Under the pieces are notes generated by a model, which did no database searches, was not told the origin of the DNA, and saw only the letters and a list, made by a program, of their open reading frames with translations. From positions 96,001-160,000 of the IMG/VR virus record IMGVR_UViG_3300042868_005761: a stretch of DNA of 64,000 bases; one strand, written 5' to 3'. Shown here in pieces: positions 52,700 through 61,173 of this stretch (position 1 is the first letter of the stretch; each line of letters begins with the position of its first letter). The DNA comes from a virus. A program made the position numbers and the translations under genes.

Positions 52700-52735
52700 A
52701 AAAAGAAAGCCCCCAGGCCTTTCGACCTGAGGGCT
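52700..52735 (-). terminator. Rho-independent terminator after the major capsid gene
   Basis: Minus strand: GCCCTCAGGTC-GAAA-GGCCTGGGGGC (11-bp stem with two G-U pairs, GNRA loop) followed by TTTCTTTTT. Confidence 0.9.
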
Positions 52736-52762: not shown

Positions 52763-54049
52763 TTAGTCAGGGAACTGAGTGCTAACCGGAGAAGCACCAG
52801 GCACCGCTGCAAGGAACTCGCCATCCGTAATATTGTAGTAAGGACGCGCAATCTCAGGAGCGTAGAAGTTCTGATCGCAGAAGATATTCTTAAGCGTAAC
52901 AAGACCCTGACCTTCGTTGTACATGAAAAGACCCCACTTCTCTGACCACTTCATCTTGAAGGTCTCGAAATACTTATCCTCCCACTCATCAGCAACAATA
53001 CCTGAACCAACGATTAGAGCACCAAGTGACTTGCTATCGCAAAGAACGATATCGGTAAGCTTAGTAGCAGGATCGTAAGGCATGAAGCGTGAGGTCACAA
53101 TGCGGAGACCGAACGGAAGGCCAAGGGGAAGCTGGGGAGCCGCCGTAATAGCATTGACGTTGAAGTCCTTAAGCGAGGCCTTGGAGCTATCGGCACCAGT
53201 ACCAAGCTGGCCGCGTGAATAACCCTTTGAAAGAACACCCTTAACGGCGTCAGGAACACCGCTAACGTTAGCGGCTGAACCCGAGTAGCTACCAAAGAGA
53301 TTGCCGCTGCCGCTCTGCATTGCAAATGCACGAAGGACGGGGTCGCGAACAAACATAAGGTAAGTAAGAGGATGGCAGATTAGCGTATCAGGCGTAAAAC
53401 CTCTCTGAATGAGAAGGTGATAAGCGTTGAAAAGATCATCCATGGTAAGAGTACCATTGGTCTTCATCTTGATGTCACGACCAGTCGTGATGCCAAGAGC
53501 TGACTGAGTAGGATTAAGATTGTCAAACGCAGGAACGCTGATGTTCGTGATATGCTTAGCGATTTCGGTCTCCTTGCGGCGAGCGAAAGCACGACCAGCC
53601 TCACGGGCAAGGTAACCAAGGAGATTCCAGTTGGAAGCCTTGATAGCCTCTTGCGTAAGGGAGATCATAACACCCCACTTGTCGATGGCGGCCGTAGCCA
53701 TACCACCGCCAGTTGTCACACGCTCTTCACGGTAGCCTTCAAGCTCAGTGACCTTATGGACAGTGAAAGCTGAAAGGGCGGGAAGGCGGAACTCAGTGAT
53801 ACCATCCGGTGCAGGAATGGTGTCAAGGAGTGGAGTTAGCGTGAGCATAGGCTCCATGGGCTCCATCATAATCTCAACAATTGAGTGCTTGACCCAGGGC
53901 CCAAGCTCAGCTGATGTAATCGCGTCTTCGATTGAAAGACGTGAATCGCTGCTATGGTCTGAGCCAGGAAGCCAACCGTTGTTCTTGATGAGCGCTGTAA
54001 GCTCACTCTGATCAGCAATTTCTAGGTTCTTATGCTTTAGTCTTGACAT
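52763..54049 (-). CDS. Major capsid protein, HK97-fold (428 aa)
   Basis: 'VTELEGYRE...IDKWGVMISLTQEAIKASNWNLL...AGRAFARRKE' and 'PDTLICHP' are HK97-type MCP patterns; strongly biased codon usage, AAGGAG SD and a downstream terminator. Confidence 0.9.
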   Translation of the reverse strand: MSRLKHKNLEIADQSELTALIKNNGWLPGSDHSSDSRLSIEDAITSAELGPWVKHSIVEIMMEPMEPMLTLTPLLDTIPAPDGITEFRLPALSAFTVHKVTELEGYREERVTTGGGMATAAIDKWGVMISLTQEAIKASNWNLLGYLAREAGRAFARRKETEIAKHITNISVPAFDNLNPTQSALGITTGRDIKMKTNGTLTMDDLFNAYHLLIQRGFTPDTLICHPLTYLMFVRDPVLRAFAMQSGSGNLFGSYSGSAANVSGVPDAVKGVLSKGYSRGQLGTGADSSKASLKDFNVNAITAAPQLPLGLPFGLRIVTSRFMPYDPATKLTDIVLCDSKSLGALIVGSGIVADEWEDKYFETFKMKWSEKWGLFMYNEGQGLVTLKNIFCDQNFYAPEIARPYYNITDGEFLAAVPGASPVSTQFPD

Positions 54050-54083: not shown

Positions 54084-55670
54084 TTAGAGTAGGACGCGCA
54101 CGATGGCAGCGAACTGACCACCGAATGACTGATGAATTTCTGCAGGATGACCATCATTAGCCGAACCAGGAGTACGATCAGCGAGTGACACGCCTTCGTA
54201 ATCATGGAAAGTCTTAACTGTTGCAAGATCAGCCTTAGGTGAACGATCAAGTGTATAGCACTTACCAACAATGTCCTCTGGACGATGGTAAAGAGTAGGA
54301 TCAACCCAAGCAGTTGCCTCTACGGTAGCATTGTCATTGGCGTCAGCGTCATCGGCACCGTCAGTAGCAATAACCTTAGTCTCATCGGGACGAGCCACAT
54401 AAGGAACAAAGTTGGAATACTTGTCATAAGCAAGATAATCGCCAGGCTTGACAGCCTTACCAACCGCAGCAAAGACATTACCACTGTATGACTCGACATC
54501 AGCAGCAAGACGGAAGGCAACAAGATAGTCACCAGTAGCAGGGCAGTCAGTGTGCACGAAAAGAAGACCAAGATCACGGTCCACAAAGTAATCGCCAGCA
54601 GCCTTAACACCAGCAGGAGCTGCCTTCTCTTTGGCTAGCCAGGTTGAAGTAAGATCCGTATTCTGTGAGACAGTTGCACCACCAGTCGCATAAGTAACTG
54701 ACCAAAGTTCAATAGTATTGTAGATGTTGCTTTCAATACCCTGATGACCAAGAACAAGCACCTTGGCACTCGCATTAGTAGCAAGATCAGCATAACGCTC
54801 ATCAAACGTAGCCTTCACGTTAGCATAGGTAGCAACCTTAGCCAAATCAGCACCATGGTAGTAGTTAGAAAGCGTAGTGCCAGCAGCAGCAGCAGCAGCA
54901 GCCGTATTAACTGAGTTATCGCCAAGGAAAACAAGCTTCTTTGTACCATCCCAAGAGGCGCTGGCATTAGTATCAGTCGTAAGATTAAGAGCCGAGATGT
55001 CATAAGACTTTGCAGGAGCAACAGGAAGACGAAGGGTGTGGTCCTGGCCAGTCCAGAACGTTGACTTATTCTCACGACGATAGTTCATGAAACGAAGCTT
55101 ATTGGGCTGCGTACCATCACCACCGGCCCAAGCGTAAACCACGTTAGCAGCTACACCAATTGGACGAGAAATTAGCTGGTCAAGGGTCTCGCCGTCGCCA
55201 AGAAGGCCACGCTCTTGAAGCTTAAGAGTAAGGGCAGTCTTAGTGTAGGTCTTAGGACCTGTGACAGGGCGACCTGTACCAAGGTCTTCAATTCTCTCAG
55301 CCACGTCAACGGCAGTATACTGGAGAACAGTAACAGATGTAGCATGAGCAGCCTTCCAAGCAAGACGAATGCCAGCAGGAACAAGACGACCTACGGTACC
55401 TTGATTGATTGAAGAGATGGTATTGTCACCAGTAAGGCTTTCACGCGTAAGAGCGACAAGCTTACCAGGCATGATAACAACCTTGTCGGTAAAGACATGG
55501 CGTTGGTAGTCATAAGAGTGGAAACCCATTGCAATATTAGCATCGGTTGGGTCAACGGGTAGCCAAGCCGCAGCGGCAAGGTCATTCTGAGGAGCAACCG
55601 TGTCGCCATGCGTAGGGGCGATAATCGGCTTACCGTAATCGATATCTCTAAACTTTCTGTATGTTGCCAT
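54084..55670 (-). CDS. Head decoration/cement-like structural protein (528 aa)
   Basis: Directly upstream of MCP with the same high-expression codon bias; VIMPGKLVA...PIGVA...KPGDYL...IVGK pattern; AGGAG SD. Confidence 0.6.
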   Translation of the reverse strand: MATYRKFRDIDYGKPIIAPTHGDTVAPQNDLAAAAWLPVDPTDANIAMGFHSYDYQRHVFTDKVVIMPGKLVALTRESLTGDNTISSINQGTVGRLVPAGIRLAWKAAHATSVTVLQYTAVDVAERIEDLGTGRPVTGPKTYTKTALTLKLQERGLLGDGETLDQLISRPIGVAANVVYAWAGGDGTQPNKLRFMNYRRENKSTFWTGQDHTLRLPVAPAKSYDISALNLTTDTNASASWDGTKKLVFLGDNSVNTAAAAAAAGTTLSNYYHGADLAKVATYANVKATFDERYADLATNASAKVLVLGHQGIESNIYNTIELWSVTYATGGATVSQNTDLTSTWLAKEKAAPAGVKAAGDYFVDRDLGLLFVHTDCPATGDYLVAFRLAADVESYSGNVFAAVGKAVKPGDYLAYDKYSNFVPYVARPDETKVIATDGADDADANDNATVEATAWVDPTLYHRPEDIVGKCYTLDRSPKADLATVKTFHDYEGVSLADRTPGSANDGHPAEIHQSFGGQFAAIVRVLL

Positions 55671-55691: not shown

Positions 55692-56540
55692 TTAGACTTT
55701 CACATCTAGTGGGTTAAACTTTCCTGAAATAAAGCCAGAACGCACTTGTTGAACAAGATAGTTCTCAGCTTTATTTATATCATGATTTCGTAATTCTTTG
55801 TATTTACTAGCTACTCTAAGTTCTACAGATGTCCAGTATTCTGGTGTAGTATCTATTGCGTCTTCAATAGTATTCACATCAAGCTTCTTACCAAGCTCCT
55901 TAGGCTCAGCAGAATCTTCAATAATAATCTCTTCTGACTCTGAACTATCGGCAGCCTCAGTTGTCGCTTCTTCTGAACTATCGGCAACTTCAGTTGTCGC
56001 TTCTTCGGCCGAATCCATTGGGCCACTCATTTCTTCTTCAATTTCCTCACCGGGAGATTCACTTGGAATTTCCATGCCAGCAGTCTGAAGAGAAGAGCCA
56101 AGTTGCCATTGCCACTTTTGATGCATATCAATGCGCTCAGCTACAAAGTTTGCAATACCTTGCTCATTAGCAGAGTTAGCCATGTCAAAGACATTCTTAA
56201 GCATAGCAATCATCACTACATTCTTCTTGTACATATCAAGAGCAAGTTCACTTGCCTCAGTGGTCATAGAGTCATCTTTAATTGATGCAGTCTCGACCAT
56301 GTAAGTAAGAGAGTGAGGAAATGAACCAAGCTTGCGGATATTCTCAGCAAGTGGATCTACTGAACTAGAGTAGATGTCATCATAGATATTCCCAAATAGC
56401 TCATGATACTGGGCAAAGTCAGGGCCAGCCACATTCCAATGTGCACGATGTGCAGTAGAGTACATAGCAATTACATTACTAAGTAAGCCCTTAAGAGCAT
56501 CAGCTACTTGAGCTGGGCTAGTTGTCATTTCAGTTTCCAT
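55692..56540 (-). CDS. dps: Dps/ferritin-like protein with acidic, scaffold-like C-terminal extension (282 aa)
   Basis: 'HWNVAGPDFAQYHELF...VDPLAENIRKLG...HQKWQWQL' is the Dps signature, with both His and D-x3-E ferroxidase ligands; GGAGG SD. Confidence 0.85.
   Translation of the reverse strand: METEMTTSPAQVADALKGLLSNVIAMYSTAHRAHWNVAGPDFAQYHELFGNIYDDIYSSSVDPLAENIRKLGSFPHSLTYMVETASIKDDSMTTEASELALDMYKKNVVMIAMLKNVFDMANSANEQGIANFVAERIDMHQKWQWQLGSSLQTAGMEIPSESPGEEIEEEMSGPMDSAEEATTEVADSSEEATTEAADSSESEEIIIEDSAEPKELGKKLDVNTIEDAIDTTPEYWTSVELRVASKYKELRNHDINKAENYLVQQVRSGFISGKFNPLDVKV
55939..56006. repeat. 33-bp tandem duplication encoding EEATTE(V/A)ADSS x2
   Basis: tctgaactatcggcagcctcagttgtcgcttct followed by tctgaactatcggcaacttcagttgtcgcttct (2 mismatches). 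Confidence 0.9.
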
Positions 56541-56607
56541 ATTATTCCTCCAAAAGGATTAAGTTAAATTAATAATTACATAGTGATTCTAGCATAATTT
56601 CTATACT

Positions 56608-59022
56608 TTAGCCACCTATACCAGGAGAAGGATACGCGCCAAGGGGAGGAGTCTCTTTCTTACTCCAGACAATAGGAGCCATAATCTTTCTTAGTTCAGA
56701 CCTCTTCTTGACAGTTACTTCTTCAGTCTTGTCATATAAGCCATCCTCACCCATCTTAGCAATAGTAAGAATAGTAGCAGGATCTTCCTCTGATGCATCT
56801 ACACTTAAACCAGGACCATGAGTAACAGTTCCTTTGCTATGCATAGCATCAATGACTCCATATCCTTCTTTCATTTCAGCTGCGTCGTCTTGCTCACCAA
56901 GTGAACCTGAACTAACACCAACTTCATTACCCTTGCTATCAAGGCGATAGGAAACAAAGTCACCTACAGCAAAAGTTGGCGTTGACGGAGTTGTATAAGT
57001 TTTCTCAGGAGTATAAGTATCTTCGACTGAAGACTTAAAACTTTCCTCAATGGCAGTCTCAACAACTGGCTCATTGTAAACAAAGTCACCCATAACCCAA
57101 GGACCCTTAACTGAATCTTCAGTTCTCATACGTTCAATTTGTGCAGCTTTGGCATTTGCCCAGCTCTTGCCGCCATCACCACCCCAAAGATCCCAAGCAA
57201 TACGACCAGGAGAGGGAAAGCCTTCTTCGCCTTGGTTGAAGCCAGAAGCCTTCTTGTCAACCTCATGACGTGCAAAGAAACTCTTCATACGCATAACGGT
57301 AGAAGGAGAAAGCTCTTTCTTGTTCATAATGTCTCTAGCGCGAGCTACTCCAACGCCGGTACCACCGCGCTTGAACTCTGCACGCCACTCAAGGGCACGC
57401 TTAGCAGCTGAAGCCATACCAGGTGTTGGAACAAATCCCTCAGCGGCATCATCAATAGTAATAGTTTTTACCATCTCAGAAAACATTTCAGCCGACATAT
57501 CGTCAGCTAACTCCAGATTGAAATTACTAACTAGTAACTTCTTGATAGAGTCTAATAGTGATTGGCTATCAAGCTCAAACTTTGCAAGCTTCTCGTCTGC
57601 GATAGCTTTGCCAGATCGTAGTTCTTCAAGCTCTGCAATTACCTCAGGAGCAGGAATAGATTTTAATTTAATGTATTCGTCAACAATTGAAAGAATTTCT
57701 TTCTTATTGTCTTCTGATAGTACGGTGGGCATTTCTTGCTCCTCTTGATTAATTAAGTTAGTTTGGTCTTCCATAGGCTCTGTTTTGTTTGCAGAAACTA
57801 ATCCATCTGGGATAACAGCAAATCTGCAGTAACCATCAGGCTCTATAGTTTGGGAAATAATTTTACAACGATTTTCGCTAGCATGAAGAGCGCAGTTGCC
57901 GCACTTAACGCCAATACTGAGATTCTCATTCTCTGGGCCACTTTCATAGCCAACCCAAATACCAGGAGCCTTATCAAGAGGTCCAACTTTATTAGCAAGA
58001 GTCATCAGTGAGTCAGCTAGAGCCTTTTCCTCTTCTGAGAGTTGACTGTAAAGATCAACATAATCGTCTGCTATTTCGACTGGCACTGTCGCAACAGGAC
58101 CATTGTCAAAGCTAGCCATAATCTCTGAGTCGCTAATATCAGTAACCGCATTCTTAAAGCAATCGGTGACAACCATAGTAGTCTTGAAGTTATCTAGGTA
58201 TTGCTGAAGAGCGTCGCCGCCAACCTCTTTGTAATTCATTACTCGTGCATGAACATCAGCAGGATGTGTAACGTAAGCATAGCCACGATAGCGAAGACCG
58301 CTTGGGACGCCATAGGCTTTGGTCCCATCAATATCGTCGCCAATGTCCCATTCCATCTCATCAGTCTTGTAAGACTTACCGCTAATAGAATCGTAAAGAT
58401 CATTAGGAGTCATTTCAACACTAACTGTAAGATAGCGCCCATCAAGAGTTTTCTCTACAGCCTCTGGATCTGTAACAAGTCCCTTGACAAGTACCCATCC
58501 AAGGCCCTCAAAATCCTCATCGGTCATCATTCCAGACTTGGCAAGCTTCTTCATATAGGGAGCCATAGCAACGTCAGGAGCCTTAAGTATAAGGCCATCC
58601 TTGATCATTGTAGAACTAACATTATAAGCAGCCTTAGGGTTGTCTACCCAAGTCCCACCCATGGCACGACCAACTGCACCAACCTCTCTATTCTCAATTT
58701 TCTTACCATCAACAATAGCAACTTCCTTATGCATAGGTTTAATAGGAATATTGTATGGACTAGTAAGTGTAGGAATTGCATCTTTTAAATCAGATGGCAT
58801 ATAGATAAGGTTATTCTGAGTAGGTCTCATACCGTGAGTAACCTTTGTAAGAGTTACTAGACCAACCTTGTTCTCTGCCACGCCATCACTAATAAAGTAT
58901 TTAAAATCAAGAAAGTGTGGGCTCTTCTTATCCCAAACTTCATGGGTAAAATCGCCCTTAATACTATTAACAAAATAGTCCTGAACAATACCTTCTTGTA
59001 ATAGTCTCTTACTTATCTTCAT
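56608..59022 (-). CDS. Multidomain prohead protease (804 aa) with HiPIP-like Cys4 domain, coiled coil and two further C-terminal domains
   Basis: N-terminal 'NNLIY...PIKPMH...AVGR...TDPEAVEKTLDGRYLTVSV...AYVTHPAD' fits a caudoviral prohead protease; lies between portal and MCP. Confidence 0.75.
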   Translation of the reverse strand: MKISKRLLQEGIVQDYFVNSIKGDFTHEVWDKKSPHFLDFKYFISDGVAENKVGLVTLTKVTHGMRPTQNNLIYMPSDLKDAIPTLTSPYNIPIKPMHKEVAIVDGKKIENREVGAVGRAMGGTWVDNPKAAYNVSSTMIKDGLILKAPDVAMAPYMKKLAKSGMMTDEDFEGLGWVLVKGLVTDPEAVEKTLDGRYLTVSVEMTPNDLYDSISGKSYKTDEMEWDIGDDIDGTKAYGVPSGLRYRGYAYVTHPADVHARVMNYKEVGGDALQQYLDNFKTTMVVTDCFKNAVTDISDSEIMASFDNGPVATVPVEIADDYVDLYSQLSEEEKALADSLMTLANKVGPLDKAPGIWVGYESGPENENLSIGVKCGNCALHASENRCKIISQTIEPDGYCRFAVIPDGLVSANKTEPMEDQTNLINQEEQEMPTVLSEDNKKEILSIVDEYIKLKSIPAPEVIAELEELRSGKAIADEKLAKFELDSQSLLDSIKKLLVSNFNLELADDMSAEMFSEMVKTITIDDAAEGFVPTPGMASAAKRALEWRAEFKRGGTGVGVARARDIMNKKELSPSTVMRMKSFFARHEVDKKASGFNQGEEGFPSPGRIAWDLWGGDGGKSWANAKAAQIERMRTEDSVKGPWVMGDFVYNEPVVETAIEESFKSSVEDTYTPEKTYTTPSTPTFAVGDFVSYRLDSKGNEVGVSSGSLGEQDDAAEMKEGYGVIDAMHSKGTVTHGPGLSVDASEEDPATILTIAKMGEDGLYDKTEEVTVKKRSELRKIMAPIVWSKKETPPLGAYPSPGIGG

Positions 59023-59643: not shown

Positions 59644-61173
59644 CTATCGAATTTTTTTTTTAACAGCAGGTTTCTCAGAGGACTTAGTAGCCATCTTATT
59701 TTGTAATTCTCTTGCCTTGTTTAGATCAGAAGAAGACATAGGTGTTTTGTCACTTCTAGCAGAGGTTTCTGCAATAGGTGACATTGCGTTAGCTCCAAGT
59801 TTCAATAGCTCTTGGGCCTCTGTAATCATCTTGTAATAAGAGTGATCCCAGTCATCTTCCTGAGCAGCAGAAAGACCAATACGATCTCTGAGTTCATCAT
59901 GACTAATAGCACTATTCAACCAAAGTTGAATTGCTGCATTCTCTTTCTTTATTTGGTTCTCAACATCTATCTCTTTGAATCTTAAAGCAACTTTATTATC
60001 TGGGTCTAGCCAGTCAAAGCTATTCTCTTCGGTGCTTTCTTGTAAAAGAGGAACAATCAAATGAGCATAGATTTGTTCCTCGAAAACAAGCTGATCACTC
60101 TTTACTGAGTTGATAAGACTACTAGACATAGTAGCAGCGGTTGATCTGTTAGCTGTATCGCCTTCTCCAATATCAACAGTAGATAAACCAAGTGCAGCAA
60201 GAACACGCTTCTTGAAATAATCAAGGTAGCCCTCTGCTCTAAGCGAACGACCTTCTGCTCCAATCATTTTAATTTCATGACGCTCAGGGGTAACAAAGAA
60301 ACCTTCAGGAGGTTGGTTATTAATAACCTCAGTAACCATACTAATCTCATCTCTACCGTCTGGTAGAATAGTAGCAGGCATAGCGTCAGTGCCAATCTTG
60401 TACTGGACAATTGGAAAGATACTTTGGTGAAGTAGAACTTCTACATCTGTTTCAATGCGACGCAAAGCTTTGATATCTTCAATTGCTGCGCTGCATCTTG
60501 GAGTACCAACAATAAAACCTTCAAGCTTGTTAACATGAAAATGTATGATCTCACTAGGCTCATATACAGTAGTAGGACGAGTATTTTCCGTCCAGTCCTC
60601 TTCGCTGTATTGTCGATACTTTATGGGTTGTTTAAGGTCGTTGACCTTAACCTGGATCATACTGGTAGGAAGTACATGAAGTGAGCTAATTGGGGCTATC
60701 TTGCGCCCTTTAGAGTCTGTTCTAGTATAGCCACCAGATGTCTTGTCATTGCGTTTGACGAGAACAAAACAATTACTATATCTAATGATATTCTTGGCTA
60801 TGTCAGTTATGAATTGGCGAGGTGTAGTCCGGCTGACATAACAAACTTCCTTCAAACGGCGCTCTATGTACTCTACAAGATCTCGGTCTTTACCTATAAT
60901 CTCGTAACCTTCTTTCATAAATAAAGATAACTTTTTGTCAAAGCTAATTTGCAAGTAAGCTTCAATGGTGGCAATCTTGTCTATCTCTTTAAAGTCATGC
61001 TCTAGCTTTTGCCAGTCATTCATAAAGTATGGACGAGTTGTTCTATAGTTAAATACTGGATCTTTTGTTCTTTCTAAACTTGGCGCAGGTATCTTACTCT
61101 CCGCATCATCTATTGTTTGAATAGAAGATGCAAGATTCTTTAGATTAATAACTTGTGCTTTTAATTTAAACAT
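59644..61173 (-). CDS. Portal protein (509 aa)
   Basis: 'IIHFHV...FIVGTP...AIEDIKALRRIE...PIVQYKIG...YFKKRVLAALG...GEGDTANRSTA' are phage portal patterns; lies upstream of protease and MCP. Confidence 0.85.
   Translation of the reverse strand: MFKLKAQVINLKNLASSIQTIDDAESKIPAPSLERTKDPVFNYRTTRPYFMNDWQKLEHDFKEIDKIATIEAYLQISFDKKLSLFMKEGYEIIGKDRDLVEYIERRLKEVCYVSRTTPRQFITDIAKNIIRYSNCFVLVKRNDKTSGGYTRTDSKGRKIAPISSLHVLPTSMIQVKVNDLKQPIKYRQYSEEDWTENTRPTTVYEPSEIIHFHVNKLEGFIVGTPRCSAAIEDIKALRRIETDVEVLLHQSIFPIVQYKIGTDAMPATILPDGRDEISMVTEVINNQPPEGFFVTPERHEIKMIGAEGRSLRAEGYLDYFKKRVLAALGLSTVDIGEGDTANRSTAATMSSSLINSVKSDQLVFEEQIYAHLIVPLLQESTEENSFDWLDPDNKVALRFKEIDVENQIKKENAAIQLWLNSAISHDELRDRIGLSAAQEDDWDHSYYKMITEAQELLKLGANAMSPIAETSARSDKTPMSSSDLNKARELQNKMATKSSEKPAVKKKIR
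59652..59661 (-). other. A10 slippery homopolymer at the 3' end of the portal gene (candidate frameshift/slippage site)
   Basis: GTT AAA AAA AAA ATT CGA TAG in frame 0; the -1 frame runs without a stop into 59009..59521. Confidence 0.6.

Follow-up and report, generated by a model that had tools for sequence, protein, structure and literature searches.

The DNA analyzed here is the structural region of a complete uncultured virus of 176,231 bp (IMG/VR record IMGVR_UViG_3300042868_005761), taken as a window of 64,000 nucleotides in which the large genes are all on the minus strand. The head genes of this window follow the order portal, a 170-aa gene, a prohead protease polyprotein of 804 aa, a gene that we call Dps-tail after its N-terminal domain and C-terminal segment, a 528-aa gene, and the major capsid protein (MCP) (Table 1). 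Full-length homologues of Dps-tail, with identities of 51% to 93%, occupy the same gene position in related phage contigs.

Table 1. Features of the Dps-tail gene and the surrounding head genes, in window coordinates.
Feature	Position	Strand	Basis
Strong terminator-like hairpin directly after MCP	52708..52735	-	12-bp stem, 8 GC pairs, T run
HK97-fold MCP, 428 aa, S-I-E-D-A at aa 39-43	52763..54049	-	Pfam Phage_capsid_4
Motif copy in MCP N-arm, aa 40-43	53921-53932	-	
528-aa gene, decoration-protein position	54084..55670	-	directly upstream of MCP in most related loci
Dps-tail gene, 282 aa	55692..56540	-	ORF; full-length homologues, same position in related contigs
Basic helix-turn-helix tail, aa 233-282	55695..55844	-	AlphaFold2; homology to protease-scaffold C-termini
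Disordered hypervariable acidic linker, aa 159-232, net charge -23	55845..56066	-	pLDDT <50; charge computed
I-E-D-A, aa 225-228, candidate prohead-protease site	55857..55868	-	I225 and D227 invariant; same four residues in MCP N-arm
I-E-D-S, aa 207-210, candidate prohead-protease site	55911..55922	-	D209 invariant in 20 homologues
33-nt tandem repeat, 2.1 copies, encoding an 11-aa acidic repeat	55939..56006	-	Tandem Repeats Finder
Dps (mini-ferritin) four-helix-bundle domain, aa 9-153	56082..56516	-	Pfam, PHROG, AlphaFold2, Foldseek, PDB profile
Ferroxidase-center stretch H34, W35, H46, D62, E66	56343..56441	-	invariant in alignment of 20 homologues
Strong ribosome-binding site GGAGGA, 6 nt 5' of the Dps-tail ATG	56546..56551	-	direct reading
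Prohead protease polyprotein, 804 aa	56608..59022	-	similarity to gp123 and L030; protease aa 1-275 = 58198-59022
Motif copy in protease linker	57445-57456	-	
Portal protein, T-I-D-D-A at aa 20-24	59644..61173	-	phrog_9232, E 2e-36
Motif copy at portal N-terminus	61102-61113	-	

The protease part of the 804-aa protein (its first ~270 residues) resembles the protease/scaffold gp123 of Bacillus phage 0305phi8-36 (tblastn E 3e-5), and the 804-aa protein is 32% identical to the protease-scaffold protein of a related locus, L030 (E 2e-27). The protease looks active, since its residues H63, H98, and S201 are conserved in 57 to 60 of 60 relatives. Further along the chain, a coiled-coil-like scaffold segment at aa ~430-530 was recognized by reading the sequence and by its similarity to relatives. 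Besides a Cys-rich segment, the same polypeptide has a Tudor-like end and, at aa 532-631, a phrog_2859 domain. Small phages of Roseobacter and Synechococcus also carry a phrog_2859 domain, in their capsid/portal region, and in other phages both this domain and the Tudor-like segment share a polypeptide with Dps. Across the window's clade the protease polyproteins range from 804 to 1016 aa and differ in their C-terminal modules. The 528-aa protein is Ala-rich and equals the 0305phi8-36 decoration protein gp124 in position; it has no significant similarity to gp124, and no Pfam or PHROG family matched it.

For comparison we collected 80 head modules from IMG/VR by means of an MCP profile, plus several contigs by exact protein look-up. 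The genes of ~60 relatives run from protease-scaffold to MCP, with a counterpart of the 528-aa gene recognized between them in ~40. Where the MCP is 34% to 50% identical to that of the window, the upstream protein carries a protease domain and is 540 to 1156 aa long, and none of these loci has a Dps gene; a separate Dps-tail gene occurs only in the window's clade, defined by MCPs that are at least 77% identical. The order in 0305phi8-36 (portal, protease/scaffold with a nested scaffold gp123*, decoration protein, MCP) is the same as here, with gp123* in the slot that Dps-tail occupies. This slot between portal/protease and MCP is a likeness that Dps-tail shares with the scaffolds of protease-scaffold systems in general, including 0305phi8-36 gp123/gp123*, lambda C/Nu3, P2 gpO, and herpesvirus UL26/UL26.5.

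From the protease gene to the MCP gene, by way of Dps-tail and the 528-aa gene, no gap between genes has a hairpin as strong as the one that follows MCP (12 pairs, 8 of them G-C), and the remaining terminator-like matches on the minus strand are all inside genes. Frameshift or readthrough as a means of joining the protease frame to that of Dps was considered and rejected, because 5' of its ATG the Dps frame stays open for 6 codons only, a stretch that does not reach the end of the protease ORF.

The Dps domain and its ferroxidase center

The first half of Dps-tail can be assigned with confidence to the Dps branch of the PF00210 mini-ferritins (aa 9-153). Residues 14-153 match Pfam Ferritin (PF00210, E 3e-11), phrog_3636 matches the protein at E 7e-23, and a profile of the family searched against solved structures retrieves Dps dodecamers, the best being 1n1q (E 1e-20). 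An AlphaFold2 model built on 20 homologues has pLDDT >90 over aa 9-153 and places the bundle helices at 9-36, 42-70, 78-84, 96-123, and 127-153, the short BC helix included; Foldseek aligns this bundle to Dps structures with TM scores of 0.86 to 0.93. The linker that follows is predicted to be disordered, and its tandem repeat is well preserved (94% matches, Tandem Repeats Finder score 122), while the terminal segment, whose last 50 residues have a pI of 9.2, is modeled as 2 helices, aa 238-253 and 255-268 (pLDDT ~87). A sequence-only reading of this DNA had proposed a Dps domain, an acidic repeat-containing linker with a terminal helical segment, and a gene slot between the prohead protease and the decoration-like and MCP genes; the database and structure searches, the disorder, charge, and repeat calculations, and the gene order bear out each of these.

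The 5 ferroxidase-center residues show no variation among the 20 full-length homologues. In a wider phage Dps clade of 240 members, 238 domains span the site, and 238/238 have the motif H-[WF]-x10-H-x15/16-D-x3-E, which speaks for an enzymatic role beyond a merely structural one. Two oddities of the site had been pointed out beforehand, a His-to-Asp spacing of 16 and a Gly in place of an acidic residue at H+4. Both are real, but neither sets this gene apart: the spacing is the canonical 15 in 225/238 domains and 16 in 13/238, the latter reflecting one inserted residue that only the window's closest subgroup has, and Gly is the commonest H+4 residue of the clade (127/238 domains). With one oddity a subgroup insertion and the other common in the clade, neither points to lost function. 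Judged by its ferroxidase ligands, Dps-tail is a catalytically intact Dps mini-ferritin and, from its homology to solved dodecamers, it is expected to form a 12-mer with the chain ends outside.

Compaction of DNA is known for some Dps proteins, so one role to be weighed is that of a DNA-condensing protein that packs or orders the genome in the head, in the manner of the Dps-DNA co-crystals of starved bacteria. The PHROG label of the family, "DNA binding protein," would agree with such a role. The charge of the protein speaks against it, as the Dps domain has a pI of 4.7, the whole protein carries a net charge of -31, and the N-terminal arm is acidic (the first 20 residues have a pI of 4.1, with one Lys and three acidic residues). 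A check of sequence and charge found no basic, Lys-rich DNA-binding arm of the Dps type at the N-terminus, and Dps proteins without a basic arm, for example that of Agrobacterium (PDB 1o9r title), are not DNA-binding. We regard condensation as extremely improbable; with an acidic Dps domain and no Lys-rich arm, any protection of DNA would be chemical and not by coating.

The tail and its relationship to scaffold anchors

The relatives' protease-scaffold proteins have in common a C-terminal pattern that can be recognized in the tail of the Dps protein too. We built an HMM from 48 such C-termini, taken from Dps-less relatives and including none from the window's clade, and searched it against a database of 1,864 ORFs. 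Every Dps-tail protein was matched, at E 1e-7 to 5e-5, and the window's own protein at E 1.3e-5, with the next unrelated match at E 0.54. Aligning the Dps tails with the scaffold tails in hhalign gave a probability of 95.1% and E 3.2e-8 over 47 columns spanning the helix-turn-helix. The homologous tail ends the protease-scaffold protein in ~50 related phages without Dps, and in loci L088 and L064 the protease gene is shorter and the tail ends a distinct gene located after it. By inspection of their sequences, the tail-bearing genes of L088 and L064 have a long coiled-coil-like, heptad-rich stretch, which indicates that the tail belongs to the scaffold part. When the whole 176-kb genome was scanned with the scaffold-tail profile, the Dps tail was the one match (E 2e-6), and in the window's clade the protease proteins, of 804 to 1016 aa, lack a scaffold-type tail and end in other sequences.

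The occurrence of the homologous C-terminal segment in Dps-less relatives identifies the Dps tail as a scaffold-type anchor. The sequence-only reading had taken the tail for a segment that targets Dps into the procapsid, by likeness to encapsulin cargo, and had raised the question of whether related phages carry it on a protease or scaffold without Dps. They do, either at the end of the protease-scaffold protein or on a separate coiled-coil gene, and the tail is related to these C-termini. The idea of an anchor thus stands through homology, while the resemblance to encapsulins is an analogy of mechanism and not one of membership.

The link between tail and scaffold covers ~47 residues and becomes visible only through a family profile made from relatives collected by their MCPs. 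With BLASTP, the whole Dps-tail protein has no similarity to the 0305phi8-36 scaffold gp123*, and its match to the L030 protease-scaffold (E 0.30) is a weak hint only; a search for related loci seeded with the L030 protein returned zero matches. Searched against 1.84 billion protein representatives, the tail profile found only members of its own clade (P0034, P0241, and a contig-end fragment, P0242). A prediction of the complex between MCP and tail, run without controls, scored 0.00, which carries no weight for or against binding.

The tail is also the best conserved part of the protein. Mean pairwise identity among the 20 homologues is 0.79 for the tail, 0.71 for Dps, and 0.31 for the variable part of the linker (aa 159-208). 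Two homologues (P0034 and P0035) have tails 94% to 96% identical to that of the window and Dps domains only 56% to 59% identical, which suggests recombination between cargo and anchor modules. A similar pattern is seen in the comparison of the window with locus L007, where the MCP is 87% identical, the tail 74%, and the Dps domain only about 52% to 55%. Tail identity therefore tracks the MCP more than it tracks Dps, indicating that the tail is a functional module that follows the capsid and not the enzyme. On a separate contig of 1.9 kb (L003:145-651), a 168-aa protein (P0241) has the same pre-tail and tail, with an unrelated N-terminal part of ~88-90 residues replacing Dps, and the next gene is a homologue of the 528-aa gene. 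For the first ~90 residues of P0241 no match came from the 176-kb genome, the fetched loci, or the PHROG families; what the contig shows is a natural exchange of cargo or an artifact of chimeric assembly.

Scaffold proteins such as P22 gp8 and phi29 gp7 are required to oligomerize. A protein that would form 12-mers, occupies the scaffold slot, and is the sole one in its genome with a scaffold-type tail might accordingly be the scaffold itself, with the Dps 12-mer standing in for a coiled coil as the hub that nucleates the shell through its 12 tails and is later degraded or expelled, its iron chemistry being irrelevant and none of it remaining in the virion. Several observations make this explanation unlikely. 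A structural hub has no need of ferroxidase ligands, yet these are kept in all domains of the clade across many architectures. The coiled-coil-like scaffold segment persists in the 804-aa protease protein, and an intact 12-mer of ~9 nm is too big for capsid pores unless it is degraded. Compared with scaffolds in general, Dps-tail lacks an elongated coiled-coil body; AlphaFold2 predicts a globular Dps followed by the disordered linker. This is also where Dps-tail departs from the known protease-scaffold systems: an enzyme of the ferritin family and its acidic linker take the place that a coiled coil has there in front of the tail, and the tail is now encoded apart from the protease protein, which no longer has one.

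Two copies of a short motif stand in the linker shortly before the tail (Table 1). The pattern I-[E/D]-D-[A/S] occurs 6 times in the 21,157 residues of the minus-strand ORFs, and 5 of these 6 copies are in the MCP N-arm, the Dps pre-tail (2 copies), the protease linker, and the portal N-terminus. The count expected in those four proteins is 0.15, giving a Poisson P of ~6e-7 for a pattern that was chosen post hoc. In distant MCPs, D42, the Asp of the capsid copy, is conserved to 90% or more. This recurrence suggests that the motif is a candidate recognition site of the phage's prohead protease, and cuts by that enzyme that free Dps from its anchor are plausible.

Related Dps domains in other phage head proteins

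Members of the wider phage Dps clade take several forms: stand-alone proteins of 155-165 aa, proteins with other conserved C-terminal peptides, domains inside proteins of 1600-1900 aa, and fusions to prohead proteases. The domains that partner with Dps include DUF6321, DUF5872, DUF5824, and Tudor-like domains. By iterated searches, at least 57 of the 240 clade members also contain a prohead protease domain, in either order and usually N-terminal to Dps, and the N-termini of these fusions are matched by PHROG 9427, "head maturation protease" (~E 1e-49). In one such case (L001:8001-10577), the gene directly after a portal/MuF gene encodes an 858-aa protein made of a Peptidase_S78 prohead protease and two Dps domains in tandem.

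The very long form is represented by P0165 and ~30 similar proteins of 1600-1900 aa, in which Dps is near the C-terminus (aa 1433-1569 of 1740 in P0165). These giant proteins sit among other very large genes, and one adjoins a DUF5824 gene. Among the fusions with conserved ends, one set of proteins ends in ...YLPQGLIxALGYxS (P0126, P0129, P0071), another in ...MNKLLRLLT (P0209, P0233, P0083), and P0053 and P0055 end in ...ELKEFHxLIKVL. The conserved C-terminal peptides of these other Dps lineages may be lineage-specific capsid anchors.

A stand-alone Dps of 160 aa was found between an MCP gene and a DUF6321 protein (L104:6363-10930); these are followed by a staphylococcal-nuclease-like gene and a small ferredoxin gene. 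Stand-alone genes of this clade in phages could be taken to mean that Dps works in the cytoplasm, shielding the infected cell from iron and peroxide stress, and that the operon place and tail of the window's protein are relics of a gene split. The only paper found on phage DPS reads it as a host-protecting enzyme (Benler et al. 2021, PMC8008677). For the protein of the window we consider this quite improbable. A tail that is better conserved than any other part of its protein is not a relic, the same Dps clade is repeatedly fused to prohead proteases, and the stand-alone gene just described also adjoins an MCP gene. In addition, Dps-tail has a strong ribosome-binding site, and between it and the head genes there is no terminator as strong as the one after the MCP.

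Proposed route into the head and comparison with known systems

An enzyme joined to the anchor tail of its relatives' scaffolds is probably loaded into the assembling head, and we hold it fairly likely that Dps is carried into the procapsid on this scaffold-derived anchor. Dps-tail would be co-expressed with the head genes, and its tail would dock on the inner face of the assembling shell as the protease-scaffold tail of the relatives is expected to do, so that Dps would be built into the procapsid. A Dps 12-mer with its ends outward would present 12 anchors per particle. The prohead protease would then probably cut at the I-E-D-S and I-E-D-A sequences that precede the tail and release Dps within the shell, where it could oxidize and store Fe2+ and consume H2O2 beside the packaged DNA. 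As to how the tail came to be on Dps, the most economical origin is an interruption of the gene, in which an ancestral protease-scaffold-tail gene would have been broken up by accessory modules just before the tail, so that the anchor is now on Dps.

Some considerations weigh against loading, the case for which is drawn entirely from sequences of uncultured phages. A 12-mer with 12 anchors is bulky, and keeping Dps in the head would cost space for DNA. Furthermore, the protease polyprotein of the window's clade, its coiled-coil part included, has no recognizable tail for head entry. A stronger version of the model, in which Dps 12-mers stay in the mature virion as an iron and peroxide sink, a cage within a cage, and in which Dps also took over the capsid-anchoring end of the scaffold, is possible but doubtful.

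The principle of loading cargo through scaffold, protease, or leader peptides is known. In herpesviruses the C-terminal end holds the protein to the shell until the protease cuts this end off at the M-site. T4 internal proteins, by their capsid targeting sequence, and the HK97 protease, by its C-terminal targeting region, are addressed into the prohead by a short peptide that the prohead protease later removes. Dps-tail resembles these in that a non-structural protein would be addressed into the prohead by a terminal segment. It differs from the T4 case, where the signal is N-terminal and ~10 residues long, in being an oligomeric iron enzyme with a scaffold-derived anchor, and a T4-type leader is absent from its N-terminus, where the Dps fold already starts at aa 9; the conserved addressing element is C-terminal.

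Cage-in-cage designs also exist among engineered P22 particles that use scaffold fusions. In such virus-like particles the cargo rides on the C-terminal coat-binding part of the scaffold and is encapsidated at assembly (reviews PMC9962691, PMC8939255). These particles are man-made, whereas Dps-tail would be a natural version.

Encapsulins with ferritin-like cargo, such as Thermotoga maritima Flp (PMC8939255), likewise combine an HK97-fold shell, a ferritin-superfamily ferroxidase, and, at the C-terminus of the cargo, an extension by which it would be held to the inside of the shell. The setting here is different, a true tailed phage with portal, protease, terminase, and a 176-kb genome, and the cargo is of the Dps 12-mer type and not EncFtn or Flp. 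The anchor differs as well, being a 50-residue helix-turn-helix related to scaffold tails and not a short targeting peptide; no Gly/Ser-Leu-type encapsulin targeting peptide is visible in the Dps-tail sequence.

Phage polyvalent proteins (Iyer et al. 2017, PMC5512222) offer a further parallel, as they place enzymatic domains on head-associated modules that travel with the capsid, and relatives of the window's Dps do occur inside multidomain head proteins of 500-1900 aa. The window's protein is, by comparison, a small two-module one and not a giant multi-enzyme chain, and the polyvalent-protein survey mentions neither Dps nor ferritin. Searches of the literature for Dps or ferritin in combination with a scaffold, a virion, or a prohead or head maturation protease turned up no relevant paper, and it appears that no one has described a true phage in which a cage of the ferritin family is borne on a scaffold tail. 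A 2026 paper offers the speculation that biochemical functions might persist in scaffolds and that a scaffold and a cargo protein may be able to take each other's place (PMC13669383).

The evidence thus points to a head-internal Dps in this phage family and not to a host-cell helper, and the protease fusions extend this head-internal reading to hundreds of other uncultured phage protein clusters. If it is true, phages can equip their capsids with a cage that detoxifies iron and peroxide, which bears on virion survival in oxic, sunlit water. Dps-tail would then be a natural precedent for engineered scaffold-fusion cargo loading and a concrete case for the proposed interchange of scaffold and cargo between phage procapsids and encapsulins (PMC13669383). 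If Dps stays in the virion, the phage head would work like a ferritin-loaded encapsulin, with Dps as an enzymatically active scaffold protein.
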